A DNA stretch of 64,000 bases from a virus. The stretch is from the IMG/VR virus record IMGVR_UViG_3300032288_005424. The stretch is one strand, 5' to 3'. A program made the translations under genes and the position numbers. The notes below the pieces were generated by a model that saw only the letters and a program-made list of their open reading frames with translations, made no database searches and was not told the DNA's origin. Positions within the stretch are counted from its first letter, which is position 1. Every line of letters begins with the position of its first letter. Positions 14,708-29,096 of this stretch are shown piece by piece.

Positions 14708-14746
14708 AAATTGTCAGGTGTCAAGTTTCTGTATTATATTTACAAT

Positions 14747-14887
14747 ATGGAAAATAACAAAGACCTAAAACCAGAACCCAAACAGGAAAAGCCAGAACCT
14801 TGCAAGCACGAACGCTATTACATTGCGGTCCGCCACGTGAGCGGACTTGTTGTAAGAAGGTGTTCAATTTGCGGAGTGAGAGTTTAA
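14747..14887 (+). CDS. small zinc-ribbon-like protein
   Basis: 46-aa ORF (CKHERYY...CSICG) preceded by GTGTCAAGTTTCTGTATTATATTTACAAT promoter; shorter than the ORF-track cutoff. Confidence 0.35.
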   Translation: MENNKDLKPEPKQEKPEPCKHERYYIAVRHVSGLVVRRCSICGVRV

Positions 14888-14908
14888 TTAAGACATTATC
14901 CAAAGAGA

Positions 14909-15020
14909 GCCCGGCCAATGGTCGGGCTTTTTGTTAATAACTATGTTAATAACTTTTTTTAAAAAAAGTGAAAATAAATTTTTTGGTTTGAGAAATTTGT
15001 TTTATATTTGCTCTATCAAT
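14909..15020 (+). promoter_or_regulatory. terminator-promoter cassette B
   Basis: AGCCCGgccaatggtCGGGCT plus T-run, then AAAAAAAGTGAAAATAAATTTTTTGGTTTGAGAAATTTGTTTTATATTTGCTCTATCA. Confidence 0.6.
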
Positions 15021-15049
15021 TATCAATTAACCCTTAAAAAACCAAACTT

Positions 15050-15427
15050 ATGCAAATCCAATTAACCCACCAAGAATCAGAACAGATGTTCCACAACGCT
15101 CTTTGCAACGGCTTAGGCTACATGAGCGGCTACGGTCTAGAATTCGAGTACAGCGACGAGCAGTACAGCGCAGCAAAGACAAAACTTCAGAGCCCATGCT
15201 TCGAGGACGTGCTCATGCAAATCCTACGCGACGGCGGTAGTCTAACTTTCGTAGACGTTGAATGCGACGGCGAATACACTCGCTCGGTCTCGTTAGCTGA
15301 TGTCCACGACAGAGTTCAAAAAACTCCAGCTCGCTTCTTGTTAGACATGATCAATGAGAACGACGATGCTGAGACAGCGGATGTAATTCTACAGACGGTG
15401 TTCTTCGAAGAGATCATCTTCGGATAA
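15050..15427 (+). CDS. hypothetical acidic protein
   Basis: 125-aa ORF followed by a long GC-rich hairpin containing ACTCCCTAGT. Confidence 0.5.
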   Translation: MQIQLTHQESEQMFHNALCNGLGYMSGYGLEFEYSDEQYSAAKTKLQSPCFEDVLMQILRDGGSLTFVDVECDGEYTRSVSLADVHDRVQKTPARFLLDMINENDDAETADVILQTVFFEEIIFG

Positions 15428-15562
15428 TCCACGGCCAGCCGGCCGGGCCAGTAGGCCACTCCCTAGTACGGGTGGTCCGCTGGCCCGGACCTTTAGAGCC
15501 AAAACGGGGTCGGACTCCCTAGTAAAGAATTTAAAATCAATAACCAATTAAATCAAAAGATC

Positions 15563-15769
15563 ATGCAACAAGAAATAATTAAAACCTTAACTGAATTAAA
15601 AAGAAACAAGAAGTACATCGCGCTCTCGCTCCACCCAGCAATCGGTAACTCAACGATTTCCAAGGAGGATAACAGACTCTTCATCAACGAAGGTCGAGGC
15701 GGTAAGTGGGAAGGAGTATCGGAAAGTTTCTACGACGAGATGGTCGCTAAGTTCGATTCACGTAGCTAG
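15563..15769 (+). CDS. small hypothetical protein
   Basis: 68-aa ORF. Confidence 0.4.
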   Translation: MQQEIIKTLTELKRNKKYIALSLHPAIGNSTISKEDNRLFINEGRGGKWEGVSESFYDEMVAKFDSRS

Positions 15770-15780
15770 AAAATATTTTT

Positions 15781-15835
15781 CACAAAAGTGAAAATAAATT
15801 TTTTTGTTTAAGAAAAAAGTGTTATATTTACAATC
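15781..15835 (+). promoter_or_regulatory. promoter C (sigma-A type) for the sigma-factor gene
   Basis: CACAAAAGTGAAAATAAATTTTTTTGTTTAAGAAAAAAGTGTTATATTTACAATC. Confidence 0.55.
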
Positions 15836-15867
15836 TCAATTATTAATCAATCAAAAACCCAACAATT

Positions 15868-16587
15868 ATGTCAAAAAGATTTGAAACAGCGGATGGCCTA
15901 CCGCAATACTTCAAGAGTATTGAATCAGTTGCCAAACCACTAAGCAAGACGGAGGAGCTTGCGCTAGCGGATAGAATCCAAGCGGGAGACGAGCGCGCGC
16001 TCAATGCTCTGGTAACCGCGAATCTAAAGTTCGTCGTAACCCTTGCGAATAAGTTTATCGGTATGGGATTACCGATCGATGACTTGATTCAAGAAGGAAA
16101 CGCTGGTCTAATTGAAGCGGCTCGTAAGTTTACATCAGATAAGGATGTTAAGTTTATTACCTATGCCCAGTTCTGGATTCGCAAGCGCTTGAATCTTGCT
16201 CTTTGCGATTACGGCAGAATCGTTAGGCTTCCGGTAAATCAAGAGTACGACATTTACAAGCGCAAGATGAAGGGAGAAGAAATCAATCTCTCAACCGTAC
16301 AGATCGATAAGCCTGTTGGCGAGGACGGTGACAATACAATCGGCGATATAATGCTTCGTACAGACTTTGCCGATCCGTTCGAGAAGGAAGAAACCAATCG
16401 TGTCTTGACCAGATTACTTTCAAAGTTAAGACCGACCGAAAGGGAGATTGTTGAATTGTTTTACGGTCTCGTGGGAGATGGCCTTTCTACGAAAGAAATC
16501 GCAGAGCAAGTTGGAAAGACCCCAGCTGAAGTTAACCGCGCGTTGAAGGTCGCACGTGCACAAATGAGAAAGGAGGTAAGCAAATGA
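15868..16587 (+). CDS. sigma-70 family RNA polymerase sigma factor (regions 2, 3, 4)
   Basis: Region 2 (NLKFVVTLANKF...DDLIQEGNAGLIEAARKFTSDKDVKFITYAQFWIRKRL) and region 4 (TEREIVELFYGL...LSTKEIAEQVGKTPAEVNRALKVARAQMRK). Confidence 0.7.
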   Translation: MSKRFETADGLPQYFKSIESVAKPLSKTEELALADRIQAGDERALNALVTANLKFVVTLANKFIGMGLPIDDLIQEGNAGLIEAARKFTSDKDVKFITYAQFWIRKRLNLALCDYGRIVRLPVNQEYDIYKRKMKGEEINLSTVQIDKPVGEDGDNTIGDIMLRTDFADPFEKEETNRVLTRLLSKLRPTEREIVELFYGLVGDGLSTKEIAEQVGKTPAEVNRALKVARAQMRKEVSK

Positions 16588-16799
16588 ATACGATAGAACA
16601 CGCAAACACGATGGCTGCCATGGCAGTCGATATCCTCTACTCTGAGGGTGATCCATTCAAGGAGCCAATAGATAAATCAAGACTCCAGTGGGAGATTCGT
16701 CAGGCCACCCTGAAGAAACTTGTGACTGAAGATTCAGACCTATTGGACGAAGACGAATTCCAAGCCTGCGTTAATAACTCTAAAATTCAAAAGGCATGA
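16584..16799 (+). CDS. small hypothetical protein
   Basis: 71-aa ORF whose start overlaps the sigma-gene stop (ATGA). Confidence 0.4.
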   Translation: MNTIEHANTMAAMAVDILYSEGDPFKEPIDKSRLQWEIRQATLKKLVTEDSDLLDEDEFQACVNNSKIQKA

Positions 16800-17092
16800 G
16801 CGTAGTAAGAATAATAAACGATACGGTCCACCTGTTCGAGAATTCGGGTAACCTGATAAGAACCATAACAAGCGGCGCGGTCTCAGCACAGATCTCTCCT
16901 GACGAGAGTCGTATTGTGCTAGTCACGGAGTCAGGGACCGCCCAGCTTTGGGACGTAAGAGGTAATTACCTACAGGATATTACGAGCGGAGCGGTCGATG
17001 CCCGATTCTCAGGAGACCTAATCATCGTTACCAAAGAGTACGGGCCGGATGAAGTTAGGGATGGGCGAGGAAATCTGCTCAGAACAATTTAA
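16796..17092 (+). CDS. repeat-containing small protein
   Basis: Internal repeats GNLIRTITSGAVSAQ / GNYLQDITSGAVDAR / GNLLRTI. Confidence 0.4.
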   Translation: MSVVRIINDTVHLFENSGNLIRTITSGAVSAQISPDESRIVLVTESGTAQLWDVRGNYLQDITSGAVDARFSGDLIIVTKEYGPDEVRDGRGNLLRTI

Positions 17093-17094
17093 CC

Positions 17095-17145
17095 GGTCTA
17101 AAAATAAATTTTTCCGTTTAAGAAAAAAGTATTATATTTACAATC
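17095..17145 (+). promoter_or_regulatory. promoter D (sigma-A type)
   Basis: AAAAATAAATTTTTCCGTTTAAGAAAAAAGTATTATATTTACAATC. Confidence 0.55.
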
Positions 17146-17167
17146 TCAACCCTAAAAATTTAAAATC

Positions 17168-17425
17168 ATGCGCTACAAATTAGGAAACAAATGGTCAGAC
17201 AACTTTGATTACGATGGAATGCTCGAGACCGGAGCACAGGTTACGGAAGAAACCCCGCTTGCAGACCTGCAGAAATTGTTTGACTCTTTCGAAGATGTCA
17301 ATTACCACACGGAATCCGAGCCGCTATGGGAAGCCATACAGGGCAAGAAGGCCGGGCAAGAAGAATACTTCAAGAAGAATCTAGCAGAGTTCAAGGCTCG
17401 CTGCTCAGCCTGCCTAGCAGAGTAA
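17168..17425 (+). CDS. small hypothetical protein
   Basis: 85-aa ORF. Confidence 0.45.
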   Translation: MRYKLGNKWSDNFDYDGMLETGAQVTEETPLADLQKLFDSFEDVNYHTESEPLWEAIQGKKAGQEEYFKKNLAEFKARCSACLAE

Positions 17426-17450
17426 AAGAATCTATCAAGAAAAAACAAAA

Positions 17451-17482
17451 GGGACCGAGGGTTAATCTTTCGGTCCCTTTTT
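17451..17482 (+). terminator. rho-independent terminator
   Basis: GGGACCGAgggttaatctTTCGGTCCC plus T-run, followed by a double TATAAT box (17485-17495). Confidence 0.6.
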
Positions 17483-17529
17483 AGTATAATATAATAGAGC
17501 CTAATTGGGTAAAAATAAATAATCAAACC

Positions 17530-17793
17530 ATGTCAGACCTAAATAAGTATTCCAAAATCCTGCTAGACCTCGTCTATCTTAGACAGACGGACTACGACGC
17601 TTTCATGAATCGCCTGTACGAAGCCTTGACCGGCGAGTTCAAGGATGTAATCAATGATTCAACCCCGGTCGAGGAGAAGTCTCAAGCAATATGGACCATG
17701 ATCAAGCATTTTGAAAAGAACGAAGAATTCGAGAAGTGCGCCGACCTGAAGAAATTAGCGGATCAATTACCTAAATCAAAAGATCATGTGTAA
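17530..17793 (+). CDS. small hypothetical protein (EEFEKCADL motif)
   Basis: 87-aa ORF sharing a motif with 2466..2663. Confidence 0.45.
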   Translation: MSDLNKYSKILLDLVYLRQTDYDAFMNRLYEALTGEFKDVINDSTPVEEKSQAIWTMIKHFEKNEEFEKCADLKKLADQLPKSKDHV

Positions 17794-17864
17794 GGTAATC
17801 CTAATAGTCGCAGCTTTCGTGTTGATTGAAGAATGGATCGTTCGCAAGAAAGCCTAAAACTTTT

Positions 17865-17925
17865 TTTGAAAAAAGTTTAAAATAAATTTTTTGGTTTCGC
17901 GGATTTTTGTTATATTTGCTCTATC
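17865..17925 (+). promoter_or_regulatory. promoter E (sigma-A type)
   Basis: TTTTTTTGAAAAAAGTTTAAAATAAATTTTTTGGTTTCGCGGATTTTTGTTATATTTGCTCTATCA. Confidence 0.55.
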
Positions 17926-17949
17926 ATTAACCAACTAAAATTTTAAATC

Positions 17950-18336
17950 ATGCAGAAATTAATTCTAGTCCGCTTCGGAAATCAACCGAACCCAATCGTC
18001 TCAATGGCTTTAAAACCCCATCTCGTTGGCAACGCGTTCGCCGGTCCAATCCCGGGCGCGATCATGTCGGTCTTTAACACCGAGTCCACGAAAGAGGAGA
18101 TCGCTGAAGACCTCAAAGAAACAGGTGCCTACTTCATGCTAATGCGAGCTGATGAAGCCACAATCAATCTTCCGGAAGAGTTGATGGAAGTAATTGCGCA
18201 AATCGTCGGTGAGGAACCTGGACGCGCGACAGACTCCAGTGAATTGACTATTGATGATATATTGGACCTCATCAACAAGAACGGTATTGAGTCCCTAACG
18301 CCCGAACAGAGACGTATCCTGGATAATCGCCATTAG
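17950..18336 (+). CDS. hypothetical acidic protein
   Basis: 128-aa ORF. Confidence 0.45.
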   Translation: MQKLILVRFGNQPNPIVSMALKPHLVGNAFAGPIPGAIMSVFNTESTKEEIAEDLKETGAYFMLMRADEATINLPEELMEVIAQIVGEEPGRATDSSELTIDDILDLINKNGIESLTPEQRRILDNRH

Positions 18337-18377
18337 GCGATTATCCCACTGTTAAATATAATCTAAACCCCATTTAT

Positions 18378-18593
18378 ATGAAGGAGATTGTAAGACTATA
18401 CTTATACACGGACGGCAAGGAAACTTGTATTAAAGACCCGCAAGAGATGATAAGACTTCTTTCAGACCCGCAGGAAGAAATAGACCTGGATTACCATGAT
18501 GCGAGAGGTTTCGCAAAGGTTGCAACCAGCAAAGACCTGATTGGAGAGACCGTCCAGGTTGGAGAAGTAGAGATTACTATTATTAACCATTAA
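18378..18593 (+). CDS. small protein, tandem paralog 1
   Basis: IRLLSDPQEEIDL...DLIGETVQVGEVEITII. Confidence 0.45.
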   Translation: MKEIVRLYLYTDGKETCIKDPQEMIRLLSDPQEEIDLDYHDARGFAKVATSKDLIGETVQVGEVEITIINH

Positions 18594-18605
18594 TCGAATT
18601 AGACC

Positions 18606-18830
18606 ATGCAAACACCAATAAACATTATAGATTGTATCGAGACCGTGGACAATTGGGGAGGTCAAGAAAAGTATTCAACTCAAGAAACGTTCAGACTCTT
18701 AAGTAATCCGGACGAATGGACAGACGACCAAATCTTTCGCGGCCCTGCTGGCGAGAGGTATTTTATAGACGACCTCATCGGAAAGAAAGTCACAGTCGGT
18801 CCAATGACATTTACCGTTCAAGAAGACTAA
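18606..18830 (+). CDS. small protein, tandem paralog 2
   Basis: FRLLSNPDEWTDD...DLIGKKVTVGPMTFTV, similar to 18378..18593. Confidence 0.45.
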   Translation: MQTPINIIDCIETVDNWGGQEKYSTQETFRLLSNPDEWTDDQIFRGPAGERYFIDDLIGKKVTVGPMTFTVQED

Positions 18831-18867
18831 AGATATTTCGAGAAATCGAGATTGGCGACAGGCTAAG

Positions 18868-18955
18868 GCTGCTCAGAAACGGGCAGCTTTTTTTTTGAAA
18901 AAAGTTTAAAATAAATTTTTTAGTGTCAAGTTTTTGTTGTATATTTGCTCTATCA
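18868..18955 (+). promoter_or_regulatory. terminator-promoter cassette F
   Basis: GCTGCtcagaaacggGCAGC plus T9, then GAAAAAAGTTTAAAATAAATTTTTTAGTGTCAAGTTTTTGTTGTATATTTGCTCTATCA. Confidence 0.6.
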
Positions 18956-18980
18956 TTAACCACCTAAATTATTAATCAAC

Positions 18981-19499
18981 ATGGCAAAGAAAATCCAAAC
19001 CACCGAACGCGCTAGCGGAACCTCATTCCACGGAACAGAATTCAGAGCGAGCGCAAACGAAATTATTGCAATCCTTGGCGAACCAACATACAATGACAAC
19101 AACGGCAGAGATAAGGTAAATCTTGAATGGGTATGCGAGACGGACGAAGGAGACGTCTTTACGATCTACGATTGGAAAGAGTATCGTCAAATCGGAATGG
19201 ACGAAAAGATTGATTGGCATATCGGAGGACACAGCGGCCGAGTAACTAAGAAGGCTGTGATGGAGCTTGAGAAGTTTGGAGTGAAGCCTTTGGAAGATAT
19301 GCTATCATTTAACGAATTTTTAAAAGAATCCAAAAAGCACAAACTAAGTATAGGCGATTTGATTGAATTTGATAACGCCGAAGCTAGAATTTATAATGTT
19401 TATACGACTAGAGGCGGTAAAGCCATGTACACAGTCGGCAGCTCAAAACATGGAACCATTGAGATTGAAGCCGAAGACATAGAAAAACAGATAAGGTAG
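18981..19499 (+). CDS. hypothetical protein
   Basis: 172-aa ORF. Confidence 0.5.
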   Translation: MAKKIQTTERASGTSFHGTEFRASANEIIAILGEPTYNDNNGRDKVNLEWVCETDEGDVFTIYDWKEYRQIGMDEKIDWHIGGHSGRVTKKAVMELEKFGVKPLEDMLSFNEFLKESKKHKLSIGDLIEFDNAEARIYNVYTTRGGKAMYTVGSSKHGTIEIEAEDIEKQIR

Positions 19500-19517
19500 A
19501 TTGATTGGATTACAGAA

Positions 19518-19605
19518 GCTGCTCAGAAATGGGCAGCTTTTTTTTTGAAAAAAGTTTAAAATAAATTTTTTTATTTGAGAAATTTGTTGTATATTTACAC
19601 TGTCA
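19518..19605 (+). promoter_or_regulatory. terminator-promoter cassette G (no ORF directly downstream)
   Basis: GCTGCtcagaaatggGCAGC plus T9, then GAAAAAAGTTTAAAATAAATTTTTTTATTTGAGAAATTTGTTGTATATTTACACTGTCA; about 100 nt follow without an ORF before the next cassette. Confidence 0.5.
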
Positions 19606-19708
19606 ATCAAACACTGACGGGACGGTTCGGAACAAGGAAGCGGGAGGTATACTCCGACCTGCACCAGACCTAGCGAGTTGTTAACAACCGAATGTTAATA
19701 ACTTTTTT

Positions 19709-19765
19709 TAAAAAAAGTGAAAATAAATTTTTTGGTTTGAGAAATTTGTTTTATATTTACAATCT
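19709..19765 (+). promoter_or_regulatory. promoter H (sigma-A type)
   Basis: AAAAAAAGTGAAAATAAATTTTTTGGTTTGAGAAATTTGTTTTATATTTACAATC. Confidence 0.55.
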
Positions 19766-19777
19766 AAATTAATCAAT

Positions 19778-20035
19778 ATGCCAACATCATTTCAACCAAT
19801 CGAAGCCCAAACATTACGGGCACAACTACAGACAGGAATTGTAAAATTCTTTTTTGTAAAAAAGGACGGCTCACTTCGTGAAGTCCAAGGAACCACCAAC
19901 TTACGCCACGTGCCGGCCGACAAACATCCTCAAGGCGTACGTCAAACCCCACCAAGCGTTATCACCTTCTGGGATCTCCTAGCGGGCGATTGGCGCAGTG
20001 CGAAAGTAGAAACTCAATTCTTTATTAACCCCTAA
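19778..20035 (+). CDS. small hypothetical protein
   Basis: 85-aa ORF. Confidence 0.45.
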   Translation: MPTSFQPIEAQTLRAQLQTGIVKFFFVKKDGSLREVQGTTNLRHVPADKHPQGVRQTPPSVITFWDLLAGDWRSAKVETQFFINP

Positions 20036-20047
20036 ACCCCACACATC

Positions 20048-20233
20048 ATGGTAACACAAGAAGCAATAGATGAAGCAATCAAAATATTCGGCGAGGACGT
20101 CGTTTATCAAGCAATGGAAGTCGTAGCAATGTCGGATCCCGATGGAGCCTACGCAATGTTCGAGGACATGGGCCAATTCGAAATGGCTGAAGCTGTAGAG
20201 TTTCTTTATTTCGACGGCTCTGCTGACGACTAA
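20048..20233 (+). CDS. small acidic protein
   Basis: 61-aa ORF. Confidence 0.4.
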   Translation: MVTQEAIDEAIKIFGEDVVYQAMEVVAMSDPDGAYAMFEDMGQFEMAEAVEFLYFDGSADD

Positions 20234-20283
20234 AATAGATAAAACTGTAGTACATTAGTCTTAACAATCAAATCAAAAGTAAT

Positions 20284-21414
20284 ATGCAAGAACGTATCGG
20301 TAAAAAAGAATTAGTAGTAAGAGACTTCTTTGAAGCTCAACACGGTGGTCGCGTGCCGCAACTAACCGTTCAACAATTGTACACCCAATTCATGACGCAG
20401 TCGACGGACGCCTCGGGCATCTCGTACGGTCTCTTCAATGGGGTAATCAAGAAGCTGCGCTTCGAAACGGGAGACTCCCTAGTCCCAGGCCCAGGCCAAA
20501 GCACGATAGCTAGAGCCACGGCTGGAGCACAGGCTGACTCCGTAGTAGAAATCAGCGATGAACCCGAGATCTTCGAGATTGGCTCAATGGAGTTTCCTAA
20601 CTTCCGCAAGTTCAAGACCGGCTCGGTGTTCGATCAATTAATGTCGGATCATGACGAGGCCGGCGGTATTTTCTCGGGCACGGCTAATATTGTAATCGGC
20701 GAGTCAGGTGTAGGTAAGTCAACCGTAACCTTGGACATGCTTGCCAAGATCAAGCAGCAGGACCCAACCGCCAAGATCTTGTACATCTCAAGCGAAATGA
20801 CTCGTAACGATCTATTCTTCTATTACAGAAAGATGCCGATCATCGAGACCATTCCTACTCTCTTGGTAATGGATTACCTAATGGGTCGTTTCGATAAGAC
20901 CTTAGAGAAGGCGATCAACGGCGACTATGACGTTATCCTAATTGACTCTCACCAAGACATTATTGTCAAGCTGAAAGACGTGCTTGGCTGGAAGTCTACC
21001 AAGGCCGAGACATGGTTAACCAACCTGATTATCGAAGCCGCTGACAAGAAAGGTAAAGCAATCTTCGCGATCCAACACATGACTAAGGGCGGTGAGTATG
21101 TCGGTTCAACCTACCTCAAGCACGCCACGACCTCAATGATGGAGATCAAGTTCGACGACGCGGGTCGCAGGTTCGTAGAGTTCTCGAAGAACCGCCGAGG
21201 CGGTAGCCTAGTCGGCAAGCGCTTGTACTACTCCCTAGTCCAAGGTGAGGTACGTTGGGACGAGGCCGCATGGAGACAGGAGACCGTGGTTAGCGAGTTG
21301 GCCGAGCAAGAGTCAGAACGCCGCCAACACTTGGAGGGCCAGTTCAACTCTCTGTTCCTAAGCGTTAAGAGACCCCAAACTGATGCAGAGAACGCTGAAA
21401 CTGCAGCAGAATAG
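20284..21414 (+). CDS. RecA-superfamily ATPase, RadA/Sms-like
   Basis: Walker A VIGESGVGKSTVTL; KNRRGG resembles the RadA KNRFG motif; hydrophobic strand plus D (ILIDSHQD) as Walker B; two GC-rich patches with ACTCCCTAGT. Confidence 0.5.
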   Translation: MQERIGKKELVVRDFFEAQHGGRVPQLTVQQLYTQFMTQSTDASGISYGLFNGVIKKLRFETGDSLVPGPGQSTIARATAGAQADSVVEISDEPEIFEIGSMEFPNFRKFKTGSVFDQLMSDHDEAGGIFSGTANIVIGESGVGKSTVTLDMLAKIKQQDPTAKILYISSEMTRNDLFFYYRKMPIIETIPTLLVMDYLMGRFDKTLEKAINGDYDVILIDSHQDIIVKLKDVLGWKSTKAETWLTNLIIEAADKKGKAIFAIQHMTKGGEYVGSTYLKHATTSMMEIKFDDAGRRFVEFSKNRRGGSLVGKRLYYSLVQGEVRWDEAAWRQETVVSELAEQESERRQHLEGQFNSLFLSVKRPQTDAENAETAAE

Positions 21415-21470
21415 TCGGAAACTTCAGCACATAATTTAGTATATTAACCCAATAAAATAAATCAATAGAC

Positions 21471-22589
21471 ATGATAAGCCAATCAGAATTCAATCAGATC
21501 AAATCAGACCTAAGCGGCAACGACCCCTTGGTAAAGCGAGTGAAGTTGTCAGACATCCAGTTGGACGACAACTCAATCAAACATAACCACATCGAGATCG
21601 AGGGATCACGAGTTCCGGTGTCGGATAAGTTCTTCAATCGTCTGGGCCAGATGGTAAACATCAACACCGGCCTAATCACGAAGATGAATAAGAACTCGGA
21701 CAAGGAGATCGAGACCAAGCTCTTACAGGCGGTTAAGTCCTATTCAGAAACCCGTGATGGTAATAAAGAGTTTCTCTTAATCGGCGACTCTACGAGCCAT
21801 CAGGTAACCAACATCGTGAAGGGAGACAAGTATAACAGATTATCTAATGATACGCTGTTCGCTACCGCAGAGACCATCCTAAACGAGATCCCGGACATGC
21901 ACGTTGAGTCAATCGACCGTGGCGGTCCAGGCGGATTATCCATTAACATGATCCATGGCAGCCAGATAGGTTACGAGAAGATCGGTAAGGACGAGGTATT
22001 CCGTTTCGGTATCTCTCTTGTAAACGGCCAGACAGTAAGCCGAGTTGACGACTTCTTCTATCGCTTGGCCTGTGCCAACGGAGCGGTAGCTCGCAACATG
22101 GACACCGCGTTCCAATTCGGTCAGGGTCAGGACGCCTTCCGCAAGTTGCTCGAGCAGATGCAAGGTTGGGCAAAGAACGGCTTCGTACCTAAGACCTTCC
22201 AAGACAGGTTGGAAAGAGCCATGACCACCAAGGCAAGCTACTCAGAATTGGAGAGAGCCTTGTACTCAGTAACCGGTGCAATCCAAGAGAACGACCCTAA
22301 CTTCAAGGCCCACTTGATCAAGAACGCAGAGTCTCAATTCTTTCCAGAGTTCGATGCAACCACGAAGCGTATCTTCCGTAAGGGTTACAATCCGCTACAG
22401 TTGACAGACGCTCAAAAGAAGTTCATCAAGACAGATGCTACAATCTGGGACGTTGTTAACGAGTTGACATGGATCGGTTCTCACGATACTGTCTTCAACT
22501 TAAAGAACCATAAAGGTTTCAAGGTAGAGGGTGGTAATCTATTCGCTAAGAGCTGGGATCTAGAACACGCAGGTCTAGCTACAATCTAA
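21471..22589 (+). CDS. hypothetical protein
   Basis: 372-aa ORF; TATATT box at 21440-21445. Confidence 0.5.
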   Translation: MISQSEFNQIKSDLSGNDPLVKRVKLSDIQLDDNSIKHNHIEIEGSRVPVSDKFFNRLGQMVNINTGLITKMNKNSDKEIETKLLQAVKSYSETRDGNKEFLLIGDSTSHQVTNIVKGDKYNRLSNDTLFATAETILNEIPDMHVESIDRGGPGGLSINMIHGSQIGYEKIGKDEVFRFGISLVNGQTVSRVDDFFYRLACANGAVARNMDTAFQFGQGQDAFRKLLEQMQGWAKNGFVPKTFQDRLERAMTTKASYSELERALYSVTGAIQENDPNFKAHLIKNAESQFFPEFDATTKRIFRKGYNPLQLTDAQKKFIKTDATIWDVVNELTWIGSHDTVFNLKNHKGFKVEGGNLFAKSWDLEHAGLATI

Positions 22590-22618
22590 GCCTTAAACAA
22601 ACTATCTATAACCGGAAA

Positions 22619-22648
22619 GGGGTCCTCACAAGGGACCCCTTTTTTTTG
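22619..22648 (+). terminator. rho-independent terminator
   Basis: GGGGTCCtcacaaGGGACCCC plus T9. Confidence 0.65.
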
Positions 22649-22761
22649 TGTTTAGTAAAACCTTAAACTCAATCCAAGTATAAGACTACTGTAGCTGATT
22701 AAACAGCTTTTCATTTTTACGACTGATGGATGGGCTTCCTAATAAGGAGCCCATTCGTCGT

Positions 22762-22905
22762 TTAGCCCTGGCCGACATTGCGCTTCACGTAGTTCTTGGA
22801 GCTCTTGTTGTTAGAGGTCTTAGACTTCGCGTGCACGCCGGGCCTGCTCACTTTAGTCTTTAGTCTAAAGGTCGAGGCAGCCGAGGTTTTAGTTGATTTA
22901 GCCAT
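22762..22905 (-). CDS. small Lys-rich basic protein (47 aa)
   Basis: MAKSTKTSAASTFRLKTKVSRPGVHAKSKTSNNKSSKNYVKRNVGQG read from the minus strand inside the GC-rich island; possibly a DNA-binding protein. Confidence 0.3.
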   Translation of the reverse strand: MAKSTKTSAASTFRLKTKVSRPGVHAKSKTSNNKSSKNYVKRNVGQG

Positions 22906-23035
22906 TGAGAGATTATGATTTATTGTTATTTAACCCAAAAACCGTGCCTCCCCCGGTGAGCTCTGGAGTTGAGCCCCCAGGCCATGGGGATTCGGGTCAC
23001 AAGTACCTTCATCGCCCCCAAATAAATAAACCAGT

Positions 23036-23485
23036 ATGACAAAGACACTAGCGCAAAAGGATTTAGACTTCATCAGATTCTGCATAGCAGAATTAGGGAT
23101 AACCACCGCTCCCAACATCAGGGTCGGGGATGACCACTCAAAGGCCCAAGACCGGAGAGCAATGGGTTACTACAGTCCCAAGGATAATTACATTTGGGTG
23201 CTAAGGGGCCAGCGAATCCCGGCTGACTGGTACCGAACCCTAGCCCATGAGCTTGTGCATTGGCGCCAACGCGAAGAGGGTAAGCCATTGGACGGGGCGG
23301 ACGGTAGCGAGATCGAGAATGAAGCTAACTCCAAGGCAGCGGTGCTCCTACGCGAATGGGGCCGCCGTTACGAACACATTTACGTGCTGGACGAGGACGA
23401 GCCCCAGATTCCAGTAGGCACTGACCTGCCTTTCGATGGCGGTGGTAGCCTGGCCGGCGAGCCAATGGTTCCATTCTCTCTCTAA
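23036..23485 (+). CDS. HExxH motif protein (putative Zn peptidase, ImmA/IrrE-like?)
   Basis: LAHELVHW motif; ~58% GC; converges on and overlaps the recombinase gene by 4 nt. Confidence 0.4.
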   Translation: MTKTLAQKDLDFIRFCIAELGITTAPNIRVGDDHSKAQDRRAMGYYSPKDNYIWVLRGQRIPADWYRTLAHELVHWRQREEGKPLDGADGSEIENEANSKAAVLLREWGRRYEHIYVLDEDEPQIPVGTDLPFDGGGSLAGEPMVPFSL

Positions 23486-24105
23486 TCCCCAATCAAGCGG
23501 CGGGACTCCAGGATGAGATCCGCTAGATCCGACTTTAACTCTTCCCGCATCTCTTCAGTTGTTAGGTGCTTGCTAACTACATGCAGCTCGACACCGTGCC
23601 AGGTCAGGAATCTCTCTATGATCTCTTGGCCAGCAAAGCGCGCGATCCTGTCAGGGGTCTCGACGACAATCATTGAGACCTGCTTGCGCAGTACCCCGTC
23701 CATGATCTTGTCCAGGCCGGACCTGCCAGCTAGGGTACCCGCGCGCCCAACATCTTCAATGACCCGGTCGACCCGGACCCCGGCCGCCGCACAGTACTTC
23801 AGGACCCGCTCGGTCTGGGCCGCGAGTCTGGCCTTGGCCCCTTTACCCAACGTGTGGTTTCCCTCGATCGGAGCGGATCGCGTGTAAACCCATACCTCTC
23901 GGGACTGGGGCAGCCTACTCCCTAGTAACTTAAGTAGGTCCTGCTTGTCGTAGTAGGTCCGGCCATTGACCTGATTCTTCCAGTTCTGCAGCCTGCCGTC
24001 GGCGACATAGCGGTCCAGGGTCTTGAGCGAGACCCCCAAGAACTGGGCGGCCTCCTTCTTGTACACGAGCTCCCCGGTCGGGAAGGTTCTAGTTTCTTGT
24101 TCCAT
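23482..24105 (-). CDS. IS607-family-like serine recombinase (N-terminal MerR-like HTH plus resolvase catalytic domain)
   Basis: N-terminal HTH (AAQFLGVSLKTLDRYVADGRL) followed by resolvase motifs VWVYTRSAP...DRVIEDVGRAGTLAGRSGLDKI...VSMIVVETPDRIARF...GVELHVV; HTH-first order as in IS607 TnpA; ~65% GC; start set at MEQETRT (track gives 24270). Confidence 0.55.
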   Translation of the reverse strand: MEQETRTFPTGELVYKKEAAQFLGVSLKTLDRYVADGRLQNWKNQVNGRTYYDKQDLLKLLGSRLPQSREVWVYTRSAPIEGNHTLGKGAKARLAAQTERVLKYCAAAGVRVDRVIEDVGRAGTLAGRSGLDKIMDGVLRKQVSMIVVETPDRIARFAGQEIIERFLTWHGVELHVVSKHLTTEEMREELKSDLADLILESRRLIGD

Positions 24106-24400
24106 GAGATTATTTATCAGGCCGGGTCCGTGGACTCTCGAGACATTCCCGGGCCCGGTGTCCCGCGGTGTCCGTATATGTCCCGAGTCGTGGGGCCCTC
24201 GCGACCCAGGGCAGCAGGTCCCAGGGCCCGGGGCCGGGCTCGCCGTACTCCGTAGTCCCCAGGTCCGCACAGTAGGTACCCCTTGGGCGTGGCTGGCCGG
24301 TTTACTCCCTAGTCCCGGGTAGGACCGCAGAGGGCCGTGGCAGCCCCCGGACCGGTGGTCGGCTGGGGCCCGGCTATCGGGCCCGGCTTGAGCGAGATTG

Positions 24401-24415
24401 GGTATACTAGCCTAT
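24401..24415 (+). promoter_or_regulatory. class-2 box GGTATACTAG 7 nt before a 29-aa membrane peptide ORF
   Basis: GGTATACTAGCCTAT then ATG (24416) MKRAGIRFDWAWPIVLVVVLASIIIFFIA. Confidence 0.35.
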
Positions 24416-24632
24416 ATGAAAAGAGCAGGGATAAGATTTGATTGGGCATGGCCTATAGTGCTGGTGGTAGTGTTGGCTTCTATAATAATCTTTTTTATAG
24501 CATAGGTAGACTGGGTAGGTTTACTAGACTAGGTAGGTTTAGTAGCTAGAGTAATCTCTTTACTTTTGGGTGTAGGGCGCGCCTCGGTGTTTTTGAGCGA
24601 GAAAAGGTCCACGGCCCGGCGAGCTCGGGTCT

Positions 24633-24647
24633 GGGTATAATAGACTC
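24633..24647 (+). promoter_or_regulatory. class-2 box GGGTATAATAG just upstream of the tRNA-like element
   Basis: TATAAT at 24635-24640; a TSS ~7 nt downstream would precede the element at 24651. Confidence 0.4.
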
Positions 24648-24650
24648 TAT

Positions 24651-24772
24651 AGTCAGGTGGCGGAACGGTAGACGCAACAAGTAAGCTAATGGAAAGTGTA
24701 CAATTCCATGAGGCCATTAATTCCGAGATGTAAGAGAAGTACATCGTGCCCGTTCGAATCGGGTCCTGACCA
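24651..24772 (+). ncRNA. tRNA-like element with a ~35-50 nt insertion in the anticodon region (pseudo-tRNA or unusual RNA)
   Basis: 5' AGTCAGG-TG-GCG-GAACGGTAGA-CGC (acceptor, U8, D-arm with GG) and 3' GCCCG-TTCGAAT-CGGGT-CCTGACC-A (T-arm plus acceptor pairing 6/7); the middle is 72 nt instead of 22-39. Confidence 0.3.
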
Positions 24773-24791
24773 CTAATACAAATAGATCAAC

Positions 24792-24977
24792 ATGAAAGAA
24801 CAAAAAGTACTCGTGACCGGCGATCAGGGCTCGCATGAGGTGCAGGCCAAGGTCGATGCCCTACTCGTGGAGGGTTGGCAGGTGGTGTCGGTCACCGCAC
24901 AGCACGTTTCCACAGGTTCAAGCCAGTTCTTTAGGGGCGGTTACTTCATCGTCTTTGAACGGGCGGCCGCCGAATAA
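24792..24977 (+). CDS. small hypothetical protein
   Basis: 61-aa ORF, GC-rich. Confidence 0.4.
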   Translation: MKEQKVLVTGDQGSHEVQAKVDALLVEGWQVVSVTAQHVSTGSSQFFRGGYFIVFERAAAE

Positions 24978-24985
24978 ATAACTCT

Positions 24986-25477
24986 ATGAAGTATATCAAA
25001 CTATTCGAGGAACTTGCCTCTGACCTGCCTACTCTAAGGGACGTGATCGACAATAACCCCGACGATTTCGAAGATTTTAGGTCCGCTGCGGTAGAGACCG
25101 CCTCGGCGCTTGGCCTCAAGCTCTCCGGCGAGGACAGCGAACTACAGGACATGGGGCTCATTGATGACGAGGCCCTGTTCGACCGGCTCGAGTTTGATCG
25201 TGTTAAGCTCGTCTTTAACATTACCGAACTTACCCATGCTGATGCTCCAAGGCTCAGGGCCCTGGTGCAAAAGTTTCCTGGCCTCTTCACGCTTGATTAC
25301 GATGAGATTAGGCCCGCCCGCAAAGCTGTTCCAAACAAGACTATAGACCCTGAGGTTGACCTCGAGCCCGGCGAGCCGGTGGACGTCATCGTGTGGAAGG
25401 ACCAGGCTGGCAATACCGCGGTCCAGTGGGAGAGCTACTACAATAACATGTGGTTCATGCTGGACTCAGCACTTTAA
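24986..25477 (+). CDS. CTS-like N-terminus protein, tandem paralog 1
   Basis: MKYIKLFEELASD; ~52% GC; similar throughout to 25499..26017. Confidence 0.55.
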   Translation: MKYIKLFEELASDLPTLRDVIDNNPDDFEDFRSAAVETASALGLKLSGEDSELQDMGLIDDEALFDRLEFDRVKLVFNITELTHADAPRLRALVQKFPGLFTLDYDEIRPARKAVPNKTIDPEVDLEPGEPVDVIVWKDQAGNTAVQWESYYNNMWFMLDSAL

Positions 25478-25498
25478 AAAAAAGAATAATAAACCCAA

Positions 25499-26017
25499 AT
25501 GAAATACCTTAAGATATTCGAAGAATTCAATAATTCAGAACTTGCAACTCTACAGGACGTGCTCAATCCGGACCATTATAACGGGGATGACGGTCGCCTT
25601 GAGATGTACTCAGAGGCTGCGCTTGAGACCTGTAAGATGCTTGGCGTTGCACTACCTCCGGAGTTCGCAGAGATCAATGATCTTGGTCTCATTGACCAGC
25701 ATGACCTCATGGACAGCTTACCGCTGGACTCTGTGGTTGAGGTCTTTAACATACTGGCTCTCACCCACCAGAACGAGCCGAGAGTTCGTGAATTCTGCCG
25801 CCGCTTTCCTGGTATACTAGCATACGATCCGGACACCGACGAGTATCGTCGACCTGAGAGTTCACGACAGCTTGAAGAGATCTTTATTGACTCGCCGGAA
25901 TACTGGGACGAGGTTAGGGTGGTGCTCTTTGAGGACAAGAACGGGCTGAGAGCGGTTGAATGGGAGGACCAAGACTATCTAGGCTACTTCATGCTTAGAC
26001 GGGACCTTGAAAAATAA
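25499..26017 (+). CDS. CTS-like N-terminus protein, tandem paralog 2
   Basis: MKYLKIFEEFNNSE; shares LGLID...ALTH...FPG with 24986..25477. Confidence 0.55.
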   Translation: MKYLKIFEEFNNSELATLQDVLNPDHYNGDDGRLEMYSEAALETCKMLGVALPPEFAEINDLGLIDQHDLMDSLPLDSVVEVFNILALTHQNEPRVREFCRRFPGILAYDPDTDEYRRPESSRQLEEIFIDSPEYWDEVRVVLFEDKNGLRAVEWEDQDYLGYFMLRRDLEK

Positions 26018-26043
26018 ATAATCTTGTAAAAAAAGAAACTCAC

Positions 26044-26334
26044 ATGAAGAAATTAATTAAAGGATTTCAACAATTCGTCAATGAAGCATCAGTTAATGAG
26101 ACCAAGTTAAAAAAGGACGTTGAAGAGCATTTTCACTATCCGGATGAAGACGCCGCTGATCAAGAGGCTTCTAGCAAAAGACGCAAAATTATGGATGAGC
26201 CGTATTCTGACGACGAAGACTACTCAGGAATGCGTAGTGTTATGAGAAAAAGATACAATAAAGATATGGGCATTTCTGATGATGAAGGCTCTGCTAAATC
26301 ACAAAAGATGACTAACCTCAGAAACCGTCGTTAA
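26044..26334 (+). CDS. CTS-like N-terminus small acidic protein
   Basis: MKKLIKGFQQFVNEASVNE. Confidence 0.5.
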   Translation: MKKLIKGFQQFVNEASVNETKLKKDVEEHFHYPDEDAADQEASSKRRKIMDEPYSDDEDYSGMRSVMRKRYNKDMGISDDEGSAKSQKMTNLRNRR

Positions 26335-26372
26335 TTACACGTATAATTAAAAACACTTTCATTTAATACTTG

Positions 26373-26402
26373 GGACCCGTACTTCACGGGTCTTTTTTTT
26401 TT
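26373..26402 (+). terminator. rho-independent terminator
   Basis: GGGACCCGTacttcACGGGTC plus T11. Confidence 0.65.
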
Positions 26403-26445
26403 GCCCGAACGGCTGGACGATAAATAACAATAAACTGGAATTCCA

Positions 26446-26952
26446 ATGTTCAATAACATTTCAGATATTCTTAAGAGCTTCACGCCCGCCCAGCGAATCA
26501 CGGCGCTGCTCATACTCGTGTTCACCATTGTGCTTATTAGTCTAGGCCCAAGCCTGATCGATCGCCACACGACTGACTGTTCCGAACTTGAGGTCAGGGT
26601 CAAGAGCCAACAGGTGCAGATCATGGAGCTCTCGGCTCAGGTCGAGAAACTCAATCGTGATCTCATCAGCGGCCAGAGCGAGTGCACTGCTAACCTAATT
26701 CAAAAACAGCAAGAGATCATGGGCATTGTCAATGGTATGATCGAGGAGACCCAGCGCAAGGCCGCCCTTGCAGGTCGTCGAGAGCAAATGATGAGGACCA
26801 GACCCGATCGAAGAGACGGTAGCGGAGACGGCAACGGTGAGCTCGCCTATTCAAGAGCTCCAGAGCCCGAACCTGTGCAGGTGATCGATGAGACCCTGCC
26901 CAAGCTTAAGCAGCTCAAGGCTCAAATTCAAAAAACCATGAAATCCAAGTAA
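26446..26952 (+). CDS. membrane-anchored coiled-coil protein
   Basis: N-terminal TM (ITALLILVFTIVLISLG) followed by a heptad-rich region. Confidence 0.45.
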   Translation: MFNNISDILKSFTPAQRITALLILVFTIVLISLGPSLIDRHTTDCSELEVRVKSQQVQIMELSAQVEKLNRDLISGQSECTANLIQKQQEIMGIVNGMIEETQRKAALAGRREQMMRTRPDRRDGSGDGNGELAYSRAPEPEPVQVIDETLPKLKQLKAQIQKTMKSK

Positions 26953-27917
26953 TGCCGAATGTAATAAAGTACAGCGCGAGCACCCAGACCAATGCGCTAA
27001 AAAGCGGTAACTTTTGGGTCGGGATCGGCGATGCTGACAAGGGCCCAACCGGCACCACCGGTTACTGGAACGGAATTAATCCTCCGGTCGGTGGCTACAC
27101 GTTCTATCTCAATAAAGCAGCCAACGGCCCGTCCGTTTATACTGCAGCAAATAGCTCTCAACTCATAAACCTGGTCAAGATTTTTTCTGGCACGACATTC
27201 GGTAGTGCTGCTGCCTGCATTAACTGGGCAAATGATAACCCGGACTACATGATTGTCAATCAAGAGTTTCCAATGACCATAACCGATGGCTTGCAGTTTG
27301 CATTCGATACTGACTACTCAATAAGTCACTCATCCGACGGTACCGATAAGTGGTACGACATGATAGGCGGAGCCTCATACACCAATGGGTCTGGGGCTGA
27401 CCCAGTCTGGATGAATGGAGTTGATGAAATAACCGTCTGCTGCCTGCTGGAAAAGACCGCAAGCACCGTCGGCCAATACGCGTATCATCCAATCAGCAAA
27501 TGGAACTCTGCCTATAATCTGAATGCGTCATTCGTTCTGTACCAGTTCGATGACTATCAGGGAAACGGAAACGATGGCATTCTTGGCTGGTACGGCTACA
27601 CCCAAAATTCAGGCTGGACCAACCTCACCGACCTGTTCATTAGGATGTTTCCCAACCAAACTCTAATGGTCAGCATGACTTACAGCTCCGCTGCCGGAGG
27701 TCAGATGTGGATCAATGACACAAAGGTCGGCAACCTGACCTCAGCCGGTGCCGGAGCGTTGGGCAATACTAATCATCCGACCTCGGTGTTTGGCATGTAC
27801 GGACCCATGCAGGTCGGCCCACTAAGAGTTCGCCAAGCCCTGTTCTACGATCGAGTGCTTAGCGACATGGAAATGTACTACAACTACGCAGCCGTCCAGT
27901 CAAGGCTGGTGTTTTAA
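26952..27917 (+). CDS. LamG / concanavalin-A-like lectin domain protein (tail fibre or receptor-binding candidate)
   Basis: C-terminal ...LRVRQALFYDRVLSDMEMYYNY resembles the LamG_3 ending (vaiYnRALsaaEi); start codon overlaps the upstream stop (TAATG). Confidence 0.45.
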   Translation: MPNVIKYSASTQTNALKSGNFWVGIGDADKGPTGTTGYWNGINPPVGGYTFYLNKAANGPSVYTAANSSQLINLVKIFSGTTFGSAAACINWANDNPDYMIVNQEFPMTITDGLQFAFDTDYSISHSSDGTDKWYDMIGGASYTNGSGADPVWMNGVDEITVCCLLEKTASTVGQYAYHPISKWNSAYNLNASFVLYQFDDYQGNGNDGILGWYGYTQNSGWTNLTDLFIRMFPNQTLMVSMTYSSAAGGQMWINDTKVGNLTSAGAGALGNTNHPTSVFGMYGPMQVGPLRVRQALFYDRVLSDMEMYYNYAAVQSRLVF

Positions 27918-28111
27918 CATAATCAACTAATGATGTACACAATAGAAGAACCCTATGCCAATTCAAGCACCCCACCAAAAGGAACTGTTCCCTTCTTTTT
28001 AGTAAAAGACGAGAACAACACAACCGTTTACACTGGAGTTACCAGAGCGGAGTGCCAGAAGTGGATCGATACTAATACGGCTCCATAATAAATAGAAATA
28101 AATCAAACGAT

Positions 28112-28753
28112 TTGAACGCTAATAATTTGAAATACGTTAAACTATACGAGAACTTCTTTGAGGACATGGAACGTGCAGCGGACCAAGCTCACAAGCCCGT
28201 GCCCTTTAAGAAGCAGGAGAAGAAGCCTAAGCCCGAACCGCAAGCCGAACCTCAAGAGGAGCCAGTTAAGGTTCAAGAACCCGCTGAAACCAGACCAGAA
28301 GAGGACACTACTGAAACGACGACTGAAGCACCAGCGCCTGAGGAACCCAAAACATTCAAGGACTGGCTCACAGGTAAAGTAAAAAAGCTTGTTGAGTTCG
28401 AAGAGACCGATCAGAGCGTGAGGTGCTGGGCAGAGCTTGAGAATGAAACCTCATGCCAATGGTCCATTTCAATGGAGGATTACCCAACGGTCGAGGCAAG
28501 TTTCAAGCTTGGAGCTGACACCGTCTATTTGGACGATGATACCTCTGGCGAGATTGCTCGTGAATACTACACTAAAAAGCGAGAGTACGATCCAAAACCT
28601 TGGACCGAATGCGTGCTACAGGTTGGAGCCCAATTTCCGGAATTCATGAGAAGAATGGAGAAGGAGGCAATCAATCGAGCGACCGATCAAGACATTGAAC
28701 TCTCAAAGATAATTGCAGCCCAATTCGGCACCCAAAAAACAGGCAAAAAATAA
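28112..28753 (+). CDS. CTS-like N-terminus protein with a Pro/Glu-rich linker
   Basis: MNANNLKYVKLYENFFEDME. Confidence 0.5.
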   Translation: MNANNLKYVKLYENFFEDMERAADQAHKPVPFKKQEKKPKPEPQAEPQEEPVKVQEPAETRPEEDTTETTTEAPAPEEPKTFKDWLTGKVKKLVEFEETDQSVRCWAELENETSCQWSISMEDYPTVEASFKLGADTVYLDDDTSGEIAREYYTKKREYDPKPWTECVLQVGAQFPEFMRRMEKEAINRATDQDIELSKIIAAQFGTQKTGKK

Positions 28754-28763
28754 AAGATCATTC

Positions 28764-29096
28764 ATGAAAAATTTAAAAGCATTCAATCAATTCATACATG
28801 AAGAACTCGATAAGGACGAAACTGGCGAGCTTAGAAGCATGGGTTTCTCTGATTACTCAGCTCCTTTCAGAGAACGTTATCAGGCATTAGTCGAAGAATG
28901 GGGTTCTGATCCTGAAGTAAATGCAGCAATCGATACTTTAAAATCCAGGTTCCGCGAACTGTTCGCAAAGCACATAGATTCCGATTCAGATGATGATGCT
29001 GAGGAGATTGAACAACTGAGAACATGGATGTACGATGCCAACGGTATTGACGATATCGGATGGTTCGAGTACATTTTTATCAATGACCTTTACTAA
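28764..29096 (+). CDS. CTS-like N-terminus acidic protein, AT-rich paralog of 10227..10565
   Basis: MKNLKAFNQFIHEE; ELRSMGFSDYSAP...DPEVNAAIDTLKSRFRELFAKH. Confidence 0.5.
   Translation: MKNLKAFNQFIHEELDKDETGELRSMGFSDYSAPFRERYQALVEEWGSDPEVNAAIDTLKSRFRELFAKHIDSDSDDDAEEIEQLRTWMYDANGIDDIGWFEYIFINDLY

Follow-up and report, generated by a model that had tools for sequence, protein, structure and literature searches.

Why should a phage carry a transposase gene with nothing of a transposon around it? The stretch of DNA analysed here (IMG/VR virus record IMGVR_UViG_3300032288_005424; 64,000 nucleotides, hereafter the window) belongs to a phage genome, with a phage sigma factor gene at 15868–16587, and encodes on its minus strand a 207-amino-acid (aa) protein, which we call rec, that is built like TnpA, the transposase of IS607-family insertion sequences. 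The original prediction for this region (22650–24780) was of an island holding either a domesticated recombinase, serving integration, inversion or resolution, or a decaying IS607 relative that had inserted next to a tRNA. We find that rec is a vertically inherited gene of a freshwater jumbo phage clade, and that its locus can best be seen as a new form of the IS607 TnpA lineage, restricted to phages, in which the protein is now a non-catalytic DNA-binding one with a phased array of putative binding sites. The explanation that we prefer, and hold with moderate confidence, is that rec is a domesticated, chemically dead TnpA descendant acting as a site-specific DNA-binding or DNA-bridging regulator. 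Two features stand at the centre:

23482–24105, minus strand: rec, the 207-aa Ser-less IS607-TnpA-like protein, identified from Pfam, Protein Data Bank (PDB) matches and an AlphaFold2 (AF2) model
24106–24400, minus strand: GC-rich (70%) non-coding leader of rec, 295 nt, identified from the GC block and the motif in relatives

The architecture and fold of rec

As predicted, the 207-aa open reading frame (ORF) has its helix-turn-helix (HTH) first and its resolvase domain second, the arrangement of IS607 TnpA: Pfam places HTH_17 at residues 17–61 and Resolvase at residues 91–194, the N-terminal part being a winged HTH of the MerR/excisionase type and the C-terminal part having the fold of a serine-recombinase catalytic domain. 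This order is inverted in comparison with the small serine recombinases and large serine integrases, where the catalytic domain is N-terminal, and the catalytic Ser is absent from rec as well. The best PDB matches, in both sequence and fold, are catalytic domains from TnpAs of the IS607 family (IS607, IS1535, ISC1926), which have the same domain order, and the top Foldseek matches of the AF2 model (predicted local distance difference test score, pLDDT, 82.6) are 3lhk, 3lhf, 6dgc, 3ilx and 6dgb. In the search for close phage relatives, canonical IS607 TnpAs, at 27–31% identity, were the only matches at the protein level; PHROG 6620, a “transposase” family, matches it at 2e-27. The N-terminal domain is similar to the winged helices of BldC, RacA, Xis and MerR, and superposes on BldC (Streptomyces) and RacA (Bacillus) with Foldseek TM-scores, normalised by target, of 0.6–0.8.

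The start codon is set by GATAAATAAnnnnATG, which is conserved across all relatives. A longer, 262-aa frame was rejected as an artefact of the GC-rich sequence, the ATG at 24105 lying behind an invariant ATAAATAA in every relative, and the extended rec ORFs of some database entries are likewise GC-rich read-through. As a separate observation, HTH regions like the rec N-terminus occur in tandem in two proteins, with eight copies in P0081 (623 aa) and six in P0133 (415 aa).

Loss of the nucleophile under purifying selection

Opposite the canonical Y-A-R-V-S, rec reads Y74-T-R76-S77-A78, with Ala78 at the position of the nucleophile Ser. Three independent alignments give this placement: that of the family profile with TP901-1 integrase, and MAFFT alignments with two canonical TnpAs, one from Helicobacter phage KHP30T and one from ISCbt4. 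Of 52 rec homologs (49–98% identity), 47 have Ala at position 78, four have Ser and one has Arg. Unlike IS607 TnpA, rec also has an 8-aa loop insertion after the motif equivalent to Y-x-R-V-S, present throughout the family, and a shortened helix E: in MAFFT alignments with two canonical TnpAs, the beta-turn (RxYGxR/GRRG; canonical ...vfsaRlYGsRs...) and the second half of the helix are deleted, and the protein stops about 12 residues after DLADLIL, with a single helix at 184–205 in the AF2 model. Its score on the NCBIfam IS607 model NF033518 is 93.2 bits, under the cutoff of 110. In IS607-family TnpAs the split helix E forms a four-helix bundle; in IS1535 TnpA cooperative binding of the ends depends on this region, which has to be remodelled for catalysis to take place (PMC6188088).

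The Y, R, D-R-x-x-R and Q of the IS607 TnpA catalytic domain are conserved in rec. Invariant in the family are R76, R93, Q97, R100, D113, D152, R153 and R156, among which R76, D152, R153 and R156 are the equivalents of R8, D67, R68 and R71 of gamma-delta resolvase. Pairwise dN/dS (the ratio of nonsynonymous to synonymous substitution rates) is 0.05–0.28, that is, purifying selection, and for this reason rec is not a pseudogene. The original prediction had held that missing catalytic residues would mean a pseudogene; the Ser is indeed missing, and only the conclusion drawn from it fails. Judged from these sequences, the suggested part in integration, inversion or resolution is unlikely, because Ala replaces the nucleophile Ser across the family and helix E has lost half its length.

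The loss reaches beyond the family itself. In a profile search of 1.8 billion cluster representatives, the nearest outgroups are also Ser-less TnpA-like proteins, with A, N, K, D, G or E at the position and a similarly short C-terminus, and canonical Y-x-R-V-S-(S/T)-x-x-Q proteins prevail only further down the list.

Divergence in place

IMG/VR and JGI/ENA metagenomes (JGI 3300043436 among the sources) yielded about 40 distinct related phage loci. The largest of their contigs reaches 271 kb, and those of 254–271 kb include CAIWBA010000291.1 and IMGVR_UViG_3300034060_001466. Every locus that reaches far enough has the order RadA-like ATPase, p372, (Lys-rich ORF), HExxH gene and rec, and loci L001–L059, L067 and L087–L101 have one common gene order around rec. 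Among the related loci, aa identity is 55–98% for rec and 62–99% for its neighbours; the two are similarly diverged, and rec has therefore diverged in place with its surroundings. In about 185,000 prokaryotic species genomes (one genome per species) the rec family occurs only twice, both times on a contig of a metagenome-assembled genome (MAG), one of which, at 254 kb, is phage-sized.

Unlike IS607 elements, the rec locus has no element ends, mobility or tnpB. The lack of a tnpB partner, already remarked upon in the original prediction, extends to remnants, tblastn with two TnpBs finding nothing at E ≤ 0.1 in the window and all related loci. Among the related loci we found no empty site; rec is a single syntenic copy, with neither a second end nor a partner site, inverted or duplicated, to bound a segment. 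An island or decaying IS607 relative, as had been proposed, does not agree with a gene that sits in the same syntenic slot throughout and co-diverges with its neighbours; the other option, a domesticated recombinase, was close to the truth and is supported in a stronger form (non-catalytic, with a phased motif array), though not as an active recombinase. In one locus, L099 (IMGVR_UViG_3300021131_000790, 3200–4300; p372 62% identical), the HExxH gene has stayed, but the slot contains no homolog of rec. A 134-aa opposite-strand ORF lies there, with no Pfam match and no homolog in the other loci.

The GC-rich leader and its phased motif

Directly upstream of rec, 300–400 nt have a GC content of 60–73% in every lineage, in genomes of 40–47% GC. 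For the window, the GC content is 42.9% overall, 54.9% over 22650–24780, 61% over 23100–24400 and 70% in the non-coding 24106–24400, with 59% in rec and 55% in the HExxH gene; the 60–65% originally given for a block of ~2 kb is thus right for 23100–24400 and too high for the whole. The high GC of rec and leader persists between lineages at dS > 1, and so has been maintained rather than recently imported.

The leader holds two to five copies of GGGACTAGGGAGTAC on the rec-sense strand, two of them in the window, at −151, −209, −266, −323 and −383 from the rec ATG, that is, with a fixed period of 57–58 bp. Within an array the 16-nt units are 81–94% identical between copies, while the mutual similarity of the 41-nt spacers is 0.30–0.35, against 0.29–0.32 expected by composition. 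The units being alike and the spacers at chance, it is the motif and its spacing that are selected, and not the spacer sequence. The consensus of the oriented motif is (G)ACTA(G/C)GGAGT(A), and its copies in the window, listed here with the ATPase gene and the separate start-proximal box ATAAATAA, are not confined to the leader:

24304–24313, minus strand: distal array copy, ACTAGGGAGT
24247–24256, minus strand: proximal array copy, ACTACGGAGT, 57 bp from the distal one
23917–23926, minus strand: copy within the rec coding sequence, in codons L-G-S of the conserved LLGSRLPQ linker
20284–21414: RadA/Sms-like ATPase gene
21230–21239, minus strand: dispersed copy, antisense in the ATPase gene (codons Y-S-L-V), its position kept in all relatives
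20474–20546, minus strand: pair at 20474–20483 and 20537–20546, 63 bp apart, antisense in the ATPase gene
15458–15523, minus strand: pair at 15458–15467 and 15514–15523 (56 bp apart), located between genes in a short GC-rich segment upstream of the sigma-factor region
13448–13457, minus strand: dispersed copy in a short GC-rich intergenic segment
24110–24117, minus strand: start-proximal motif ATAAATAA, 4 nt before the rec ATG, family-invariant

Seven exact 10-mers of the motif occur in the 64 kb, where about 0.12 are expected. When one mismatch is allowed, all nine matches are on the minus strand and within 13.4–24.3 kb, and the one-strand rule holds also in the relatives, in which the motif was mapped within ±5–6 kb of rec. 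The copy inside rec is held at the codon level: CTA GGG AGT is used in 16/24 distinct rec genes, and Ser63 is AGT in all 24, no other of the 52 conserved degenerate columns being free of synonymous variation. The leader was also considered as coding sequence, either a 19-aa repeat or an N-terminal extension of rec, and rejected, since the period alternates between 57 and 58 nt and the conserved ATG lies behind ATAAATAA.

That start-proximal box lies 4–7 nt before the ATG of at least eight ORFs in the window, the further sites being at 23022, 24974, 17515, 38906 and 48769 (plus strand) and at 7319 and 4315 (minus strand). A box of the same type stands just before the ATG of distant rec-like genes on contigs L062–L064 and L066, and ATAGAAAATAA takes its place in L065. 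It resembles a T4-type late promoter box, so positioned that it would give leaderless mRNAs, or a start-site signal. A sigma-70 consensus scan of 22400–25000 found no full promoter.

Three observations concern the wider GC pattern. The window is patchily GC-richer over 10000–27000 (48–65% in blocks) than over 28000–64000 (about 41%), and every motif copy is in the GC-richer part. The segments 13428–13500 and 15428–15565 (plus strand) have in common CGGACTCCCTAGTAAAGA, the motif read on the plus strand, and each runs from GC-rich hairpins through the motif and about 36 AT-rich nt to the ATCATG of the next plus-strand ORF, with motif-to-ATG distances of 39 and 41 nt; they look like reusable terminator/promoter-type cassettes. 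Finally, a second GC-rich block (about 65%) at 11400–11780, with no credible ORF, has many short direct repeats (CAGACCTGTCAG, CAGACGTTGCGGTT and ACTACCGG(A/G)GT, each twice) and may be another protein-binding array.

From co-occurrence to a proposed function

The motif follows the protein outside the phage clade. Five Ser-less rec relatives (25–32% identity) on the unrelated short contigs L062–L066 each have two to five copies of ACTA[CG]GGAGT next to or inside the rec-like gene, where about 0.01 per contig is expected. The exact motif 15-mer is found in 18 stretches in 2.9 million viral contigs, 13 of them on rec-bearing contigs, and one further exact stretch, on L071, lies beside a distant rec-like gene. 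Short direct repeats adjoin the 5′ end of the IS607 tnpA gene, and those upstream of rec, with their 57–58-bp period and dispersed further copies, may be their counterpart. In the IS607 family (IS1535) TnpA dimers bind cooperatively to the direct subterminal repeats next to tnpA and, with their free DNA-binding domains, take hold of a second DNA (PMC6188088). Read most economically, the sequences suggest that the rec HTH has the motif as its cognate site, binding and bridging having presumably been kept and strand exchange lost.

The proposed mechanism begins with a protein that retains a winged HTH and a dimer-forming catalytic-domain fold, having lost the nucleophile Ser and distal helix E. 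Such a protein would bind the oriented motif in the leader array, within the rec gene itself and at sites of like orientation as far as 11 kb off. By analogy with IS607 TnpA, it would cover the array and join it, by bridging or looping, to the dispersed sites. Without any DNA cutting, this could control the rec promoter (autoregulation) and the divergent promoter or promoters of the small-peptide and tRNA-scaffold genes, and/or set the local architecture of the early/replication-gene region. The convergent HExxH protein may process or antagonise rec.

Several observations weigh against this reading. The link between motif and protein is one of co-occurrence. The 57–58 bp spacing (5.5 helical turns), with further copies dispersed over 11 kb, is unlike the ~10-bp phasing of the IS1535 motifs, and the leader's GC content of about 70% is unexplained. 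The invariant R76, D152, R153 and R156 could represent residual phosphate chemistry and not a purely structural role, and four of the 52 homologs do have Ser at position 78. Lastly, L099 has six motif copies, including a 58-bp pair, despite the absence of rec from the slot, so the motif can persist without rec in cis, which speaks against an obligatory cis link.

The separate observations can also be joined into a single, more far-reaching picture, which we offer tentatively as possible. TnpA derivatives with no nucleophile (Ala, Asn, Lys or Asp at the Ser position) would have radiated in phages only and kept the paired-end-complex machinery but not its chemistry; dimers on the 57–58-bp array would capture same-orientation copies via their free HTHs, folding about 10 kb into a looped or wrapped structure that times early-region and tRNA-scaffold RNA expression, or replication, with the HExxH protease as the off-switch.

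Alternative explanations

The strongest competitor of the regulator hypothesis, and one that we consider unlikely, is that the motif and its array serve as a phage signal of their own, one recognised by a different factor, with rec merely a neighbour or a local regulator of something else. Candidates for such a signal are a phage sigma-factor promoter/operator, replication-origin iterons, and a packaging or polarity signal. L099, with its motif pair and dispersed copies in the absence of rec, fits this well, as do the copies up to 11 kb away, some inside other genes, and the strict one-strand polarity, which is as in polar DNA signals. The neighbourhood is of a replication type (RadA-like ATPase, sigma factor, topoisomerase II), and an AT-richer repeat segment (24420–24560) lies beside the GC-rich array, as in many origins. 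An independent signal does not, however, account for motif clusters at rec-like genes in six distant contexts with no detectable p372 or ATPase homologs, nor for an array position fixed relative to the rec ATG. Furthermore, the array units lack an AT-rich −10-like element spaced constantly from the motif, and cumulative GC skew shows no switch at the rec locus, although this is not decisive on a replication origin.

A functional RNA in the leader (a structured 5′ untranslated region, a processed repeat-spacer array or a guide RNA), acting together with the protein as bridge RNAs do with IS110 recombinases, is in our view quite improbable. The leader is directly 5′ of rec, and its conserved 16-nt repeat with unique spacers of constant length looks like a repeat-spacer array; the rec-sense strand also has a weak conserved 4-bp helix with G-U pairs. 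This single helix is, however, all that RNAalifold returned for 15 diverse leaders (−0.54 kcal/mol, almost no covariation, no consensus structure), and Rfam gave no match to the leader at the gathering threshold or E ≤ 5; a structured RNA was rejected on these two null results. Nor is the motif a hairpin, as its symmetric arms are only the 3-bp ACT/AGT and its flanks show no covariation. A CRISPR-like array was rejected since the unit is only about 16 nt (against repeats of 23–47 nt) and the spacers are vertically inherited with point substitutions, not replaced. The motif is moreover conserved antisense inside coding regions of other genes.

We think it highly improbable that rec is an active site-specific recombinase using an alternative nucleophile, with the direct repeats as recombination or accessory sites. 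Such an enzyme would explain the invariance of R76, D152, R153 and R156, the homologs with Ser78, the Ser77 of the window rec beside the canonical position, and direct repeats that recall IS607 ends by a tnpA-like gene. Ser77, however, is Ala in 44/52 homologs and stands at the position of the canonical Val between Arg and the nucleophile, which packs into the core in resolvase structures. Between R76 and R93 no Ser/Thr hydroxyl is conserved in the 52 homologs, two of which have no Ser or Thr in this loop at all, and Cys75 was rejected as a substitute, canonical TnpAs carrying A, C, S or T there. The deleted helix-E turn and second half of the helix, the single syntenic copy with no second end or partner site, and the frequency with which relatives carry A, N, K or D in place of the nucleophile point the same way.

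We give next to no credence to an ordinary or decaying IS607-family insertion sequence beside a tRNA gene: the GC content of 15–25 points above the genome, the TnpA-like architecture and the PHROG 6620 “transposase” match are as such an element would have them, but rec holds an identical position in about 40 loci, between which the identity of the flanking proteins is down to 62–99%, co-diverges with these proteins under purifying selection, maintains its high GC at dS > 1, has neither tnpB or remnant nor an empty site, and neighbours tRNA-like genes that form a phage paralog cluster.

Neighbouring genes and the tRNA-like RNA

Around rec and its leader lie the following:

22762–22905, minus strand: 47-aa basic Lys/Ser-rich ORF, on the rec strand
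23036–23485, plus strand: 149-aa HExxH (HELVH) zincin-like protein, with weak zincin/metalloprotease profile matches
24400–24415, plus strand: promoter-like element GGGTATACTAGCCTAT, before the 29-aa peptide ORF
24416–24505, plus strand: 29-aa hydrophobic peptide ORF (MKRAGIRFDWAWPIVLVVVLASIIIFFIA), single-transmembrane-like, divergent from rec
24507–24549, plus strand: 18-bp tandem repeat TAGACTrGGTAGGTTTAs, 2.4 copies
24568–24584, plus strand: terminator-like hairpin
24613–24650, plus strand: the promoter-like element again, here immediately upstream of the gene for the tRNA-like RNA
24651–24773, plus strand: tRNA-like RNA with good acceptor, D and T arms, about 70 nt replacing the anticodon arm

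Most of these had been named in the original prediction, and the HExxH protein, the small Lys-rich protein, the tandem repeats (placed at 24500–24550), the TATAAT box and the tRNA-like RNA are all present. The HExxH gene is convergent with rec, the 3′ ends overlapping by 4 nt, and adjoins it in all loci of the family; a 42%-identical copy is on the L071 contig with the distant rec-like gene. The protein has weak DUF6782, MPTase-PolyVal and PHROG 87 matches, and the ImmA/IrrE models do not match it. The 47-aa ORF, with nine K, three R, eight S and no D/E, is conserved at 55–96% aa identity in several clades. The 29-aa peptide is conserved with substitutions in L001 and L017, and the “tataat” at 24481–24486 (“ttctataataatc”) within it is therefore coding sequence. 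The TATAAT at 24636–24641 is another matter, being inside a 38-nt element that is duplicated at 24380–24417; the sigma-70 scan found no full promoter here either.

The tRNA-like RNA has no canonical anticodon arm and falls short of a tRNA cloverleaf. ARAGORN called it only with the intron option, forcing a 30-nt “intron” and a weak stem, and the Rfam tRNA model RF00005 gave no match at 24651–24773 at the gathering score or E ≤ 5. Relatives carry one to three paralogous genes at the same place, with a common scaffold, AGUCAGGUGGCGGAAU...GGUUCGAAUCCUGUCCUGACUA, in which the acceptor, D and T arms are near-identical and the middle (8–65 nt) is hypervariable:

L001: 4301–4377 and 4459–4539
L010: 3930–4035, 4130–4206 and 4283–4367
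L011: 4177–4302 and 4377–4467
L016: 3391–3464 and 3624–3735

A few paralogs look like near-canonical tRNAs; their anticodons are ACU, UCA (such a tRNA would resemble a UGA suppressor) and AAU. In the window and in L001, gtataatagactctatag precedes each tRNA-like gene, and in a 93%-identical relative 1167 bp with two small ORFs and two tRNA-like genes replace window 24618–24751. As a family of paralogs at the same place, the tRNA-like element is intrinsic to the phage and no integration target, which removes the ground for the insertion next to a tRNA that had originally been proposed.

Phage genome and host

Elsewhere in the window, subunits of a type II topoisomerase are encoded at 40590–44265, a cohesin-domain protein with a type IX secretion system (T9SS) sorting tail at 49455–51380 and, as an observation apart, a histone-deacetylase-domain protein at 1451–2527; a tRNA cluster occupies the 3′ end. 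Megablast of 19000–29000 against INPHARED matched no close phage relative, and the PADLOC defence-system models gave only weak HTH and P-loop matches. The host is probably in the Bacteroidota, because of the T9SS-tailed protein and because the 254-kb contig (L067) was binned with a Bacteroidetes MAG.

Comparison with known systems and significance

Beyond IS607 itself, three systems invite comparison. TldRs are nuclease-dead, TnpB-like repressors; these transcription factors, encoded by phages and by bacteria, descend from the other gene of IS605/IS607 elements (PMC10705468). By analogy, rec would embody the same concept, a transposon protein that has lost catalysis, kept target recognition and been retained by phages as a regulator; the ancestors differ, that of TldR being an RuvC-type TnpB and that of rec a serine TnpA, and TldR is RNA-guided, while no guide RNA is evident for rec. 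BldC forms cooperative head-to-tail multimers on direct repeats, and RacA binds dispersed, GC-rich, centromere-like sites; neither has a recombinase-fold domain, their motifs are unrelated to that of rec, and their sites are not phased at 57–58 bp. Finally, the ImmR/ImmA-type pairs of mobile elements place the gene of an HTH protein beside a small HExxH gene, as at rec and even in L071. Unlike these pairs, the rec and HExxH genes are convergent and the HExxH protein has no ImmA/IrrE match, any cleavage relation being putative.

The domestication of tnpB from IS605/IS607 elements, into Cas12 and into TldR regulators, is well documented. No comparably widespread domestication of the serine transposase TnpA turned up in the searchable literature, and the rec family, its binding being predicted, would be nature's own example of such a transposase that binds and synapses DNA but performs no chemistry. 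The annotation “transposase” or “integrase-resolvase” that hidden Markov models give to rec genes wrongly implies mobility or lysogeny in these jumbo phages. The putative cognate signature is unusually clean, a 10–13-bp oriented motif in a frozen 57–58-bp phase that is kept even in coding sequences, and with it the rec family makes the poorly understood synaptic architecture of IS607, and the organisation of phage chromosomes, directly testable.

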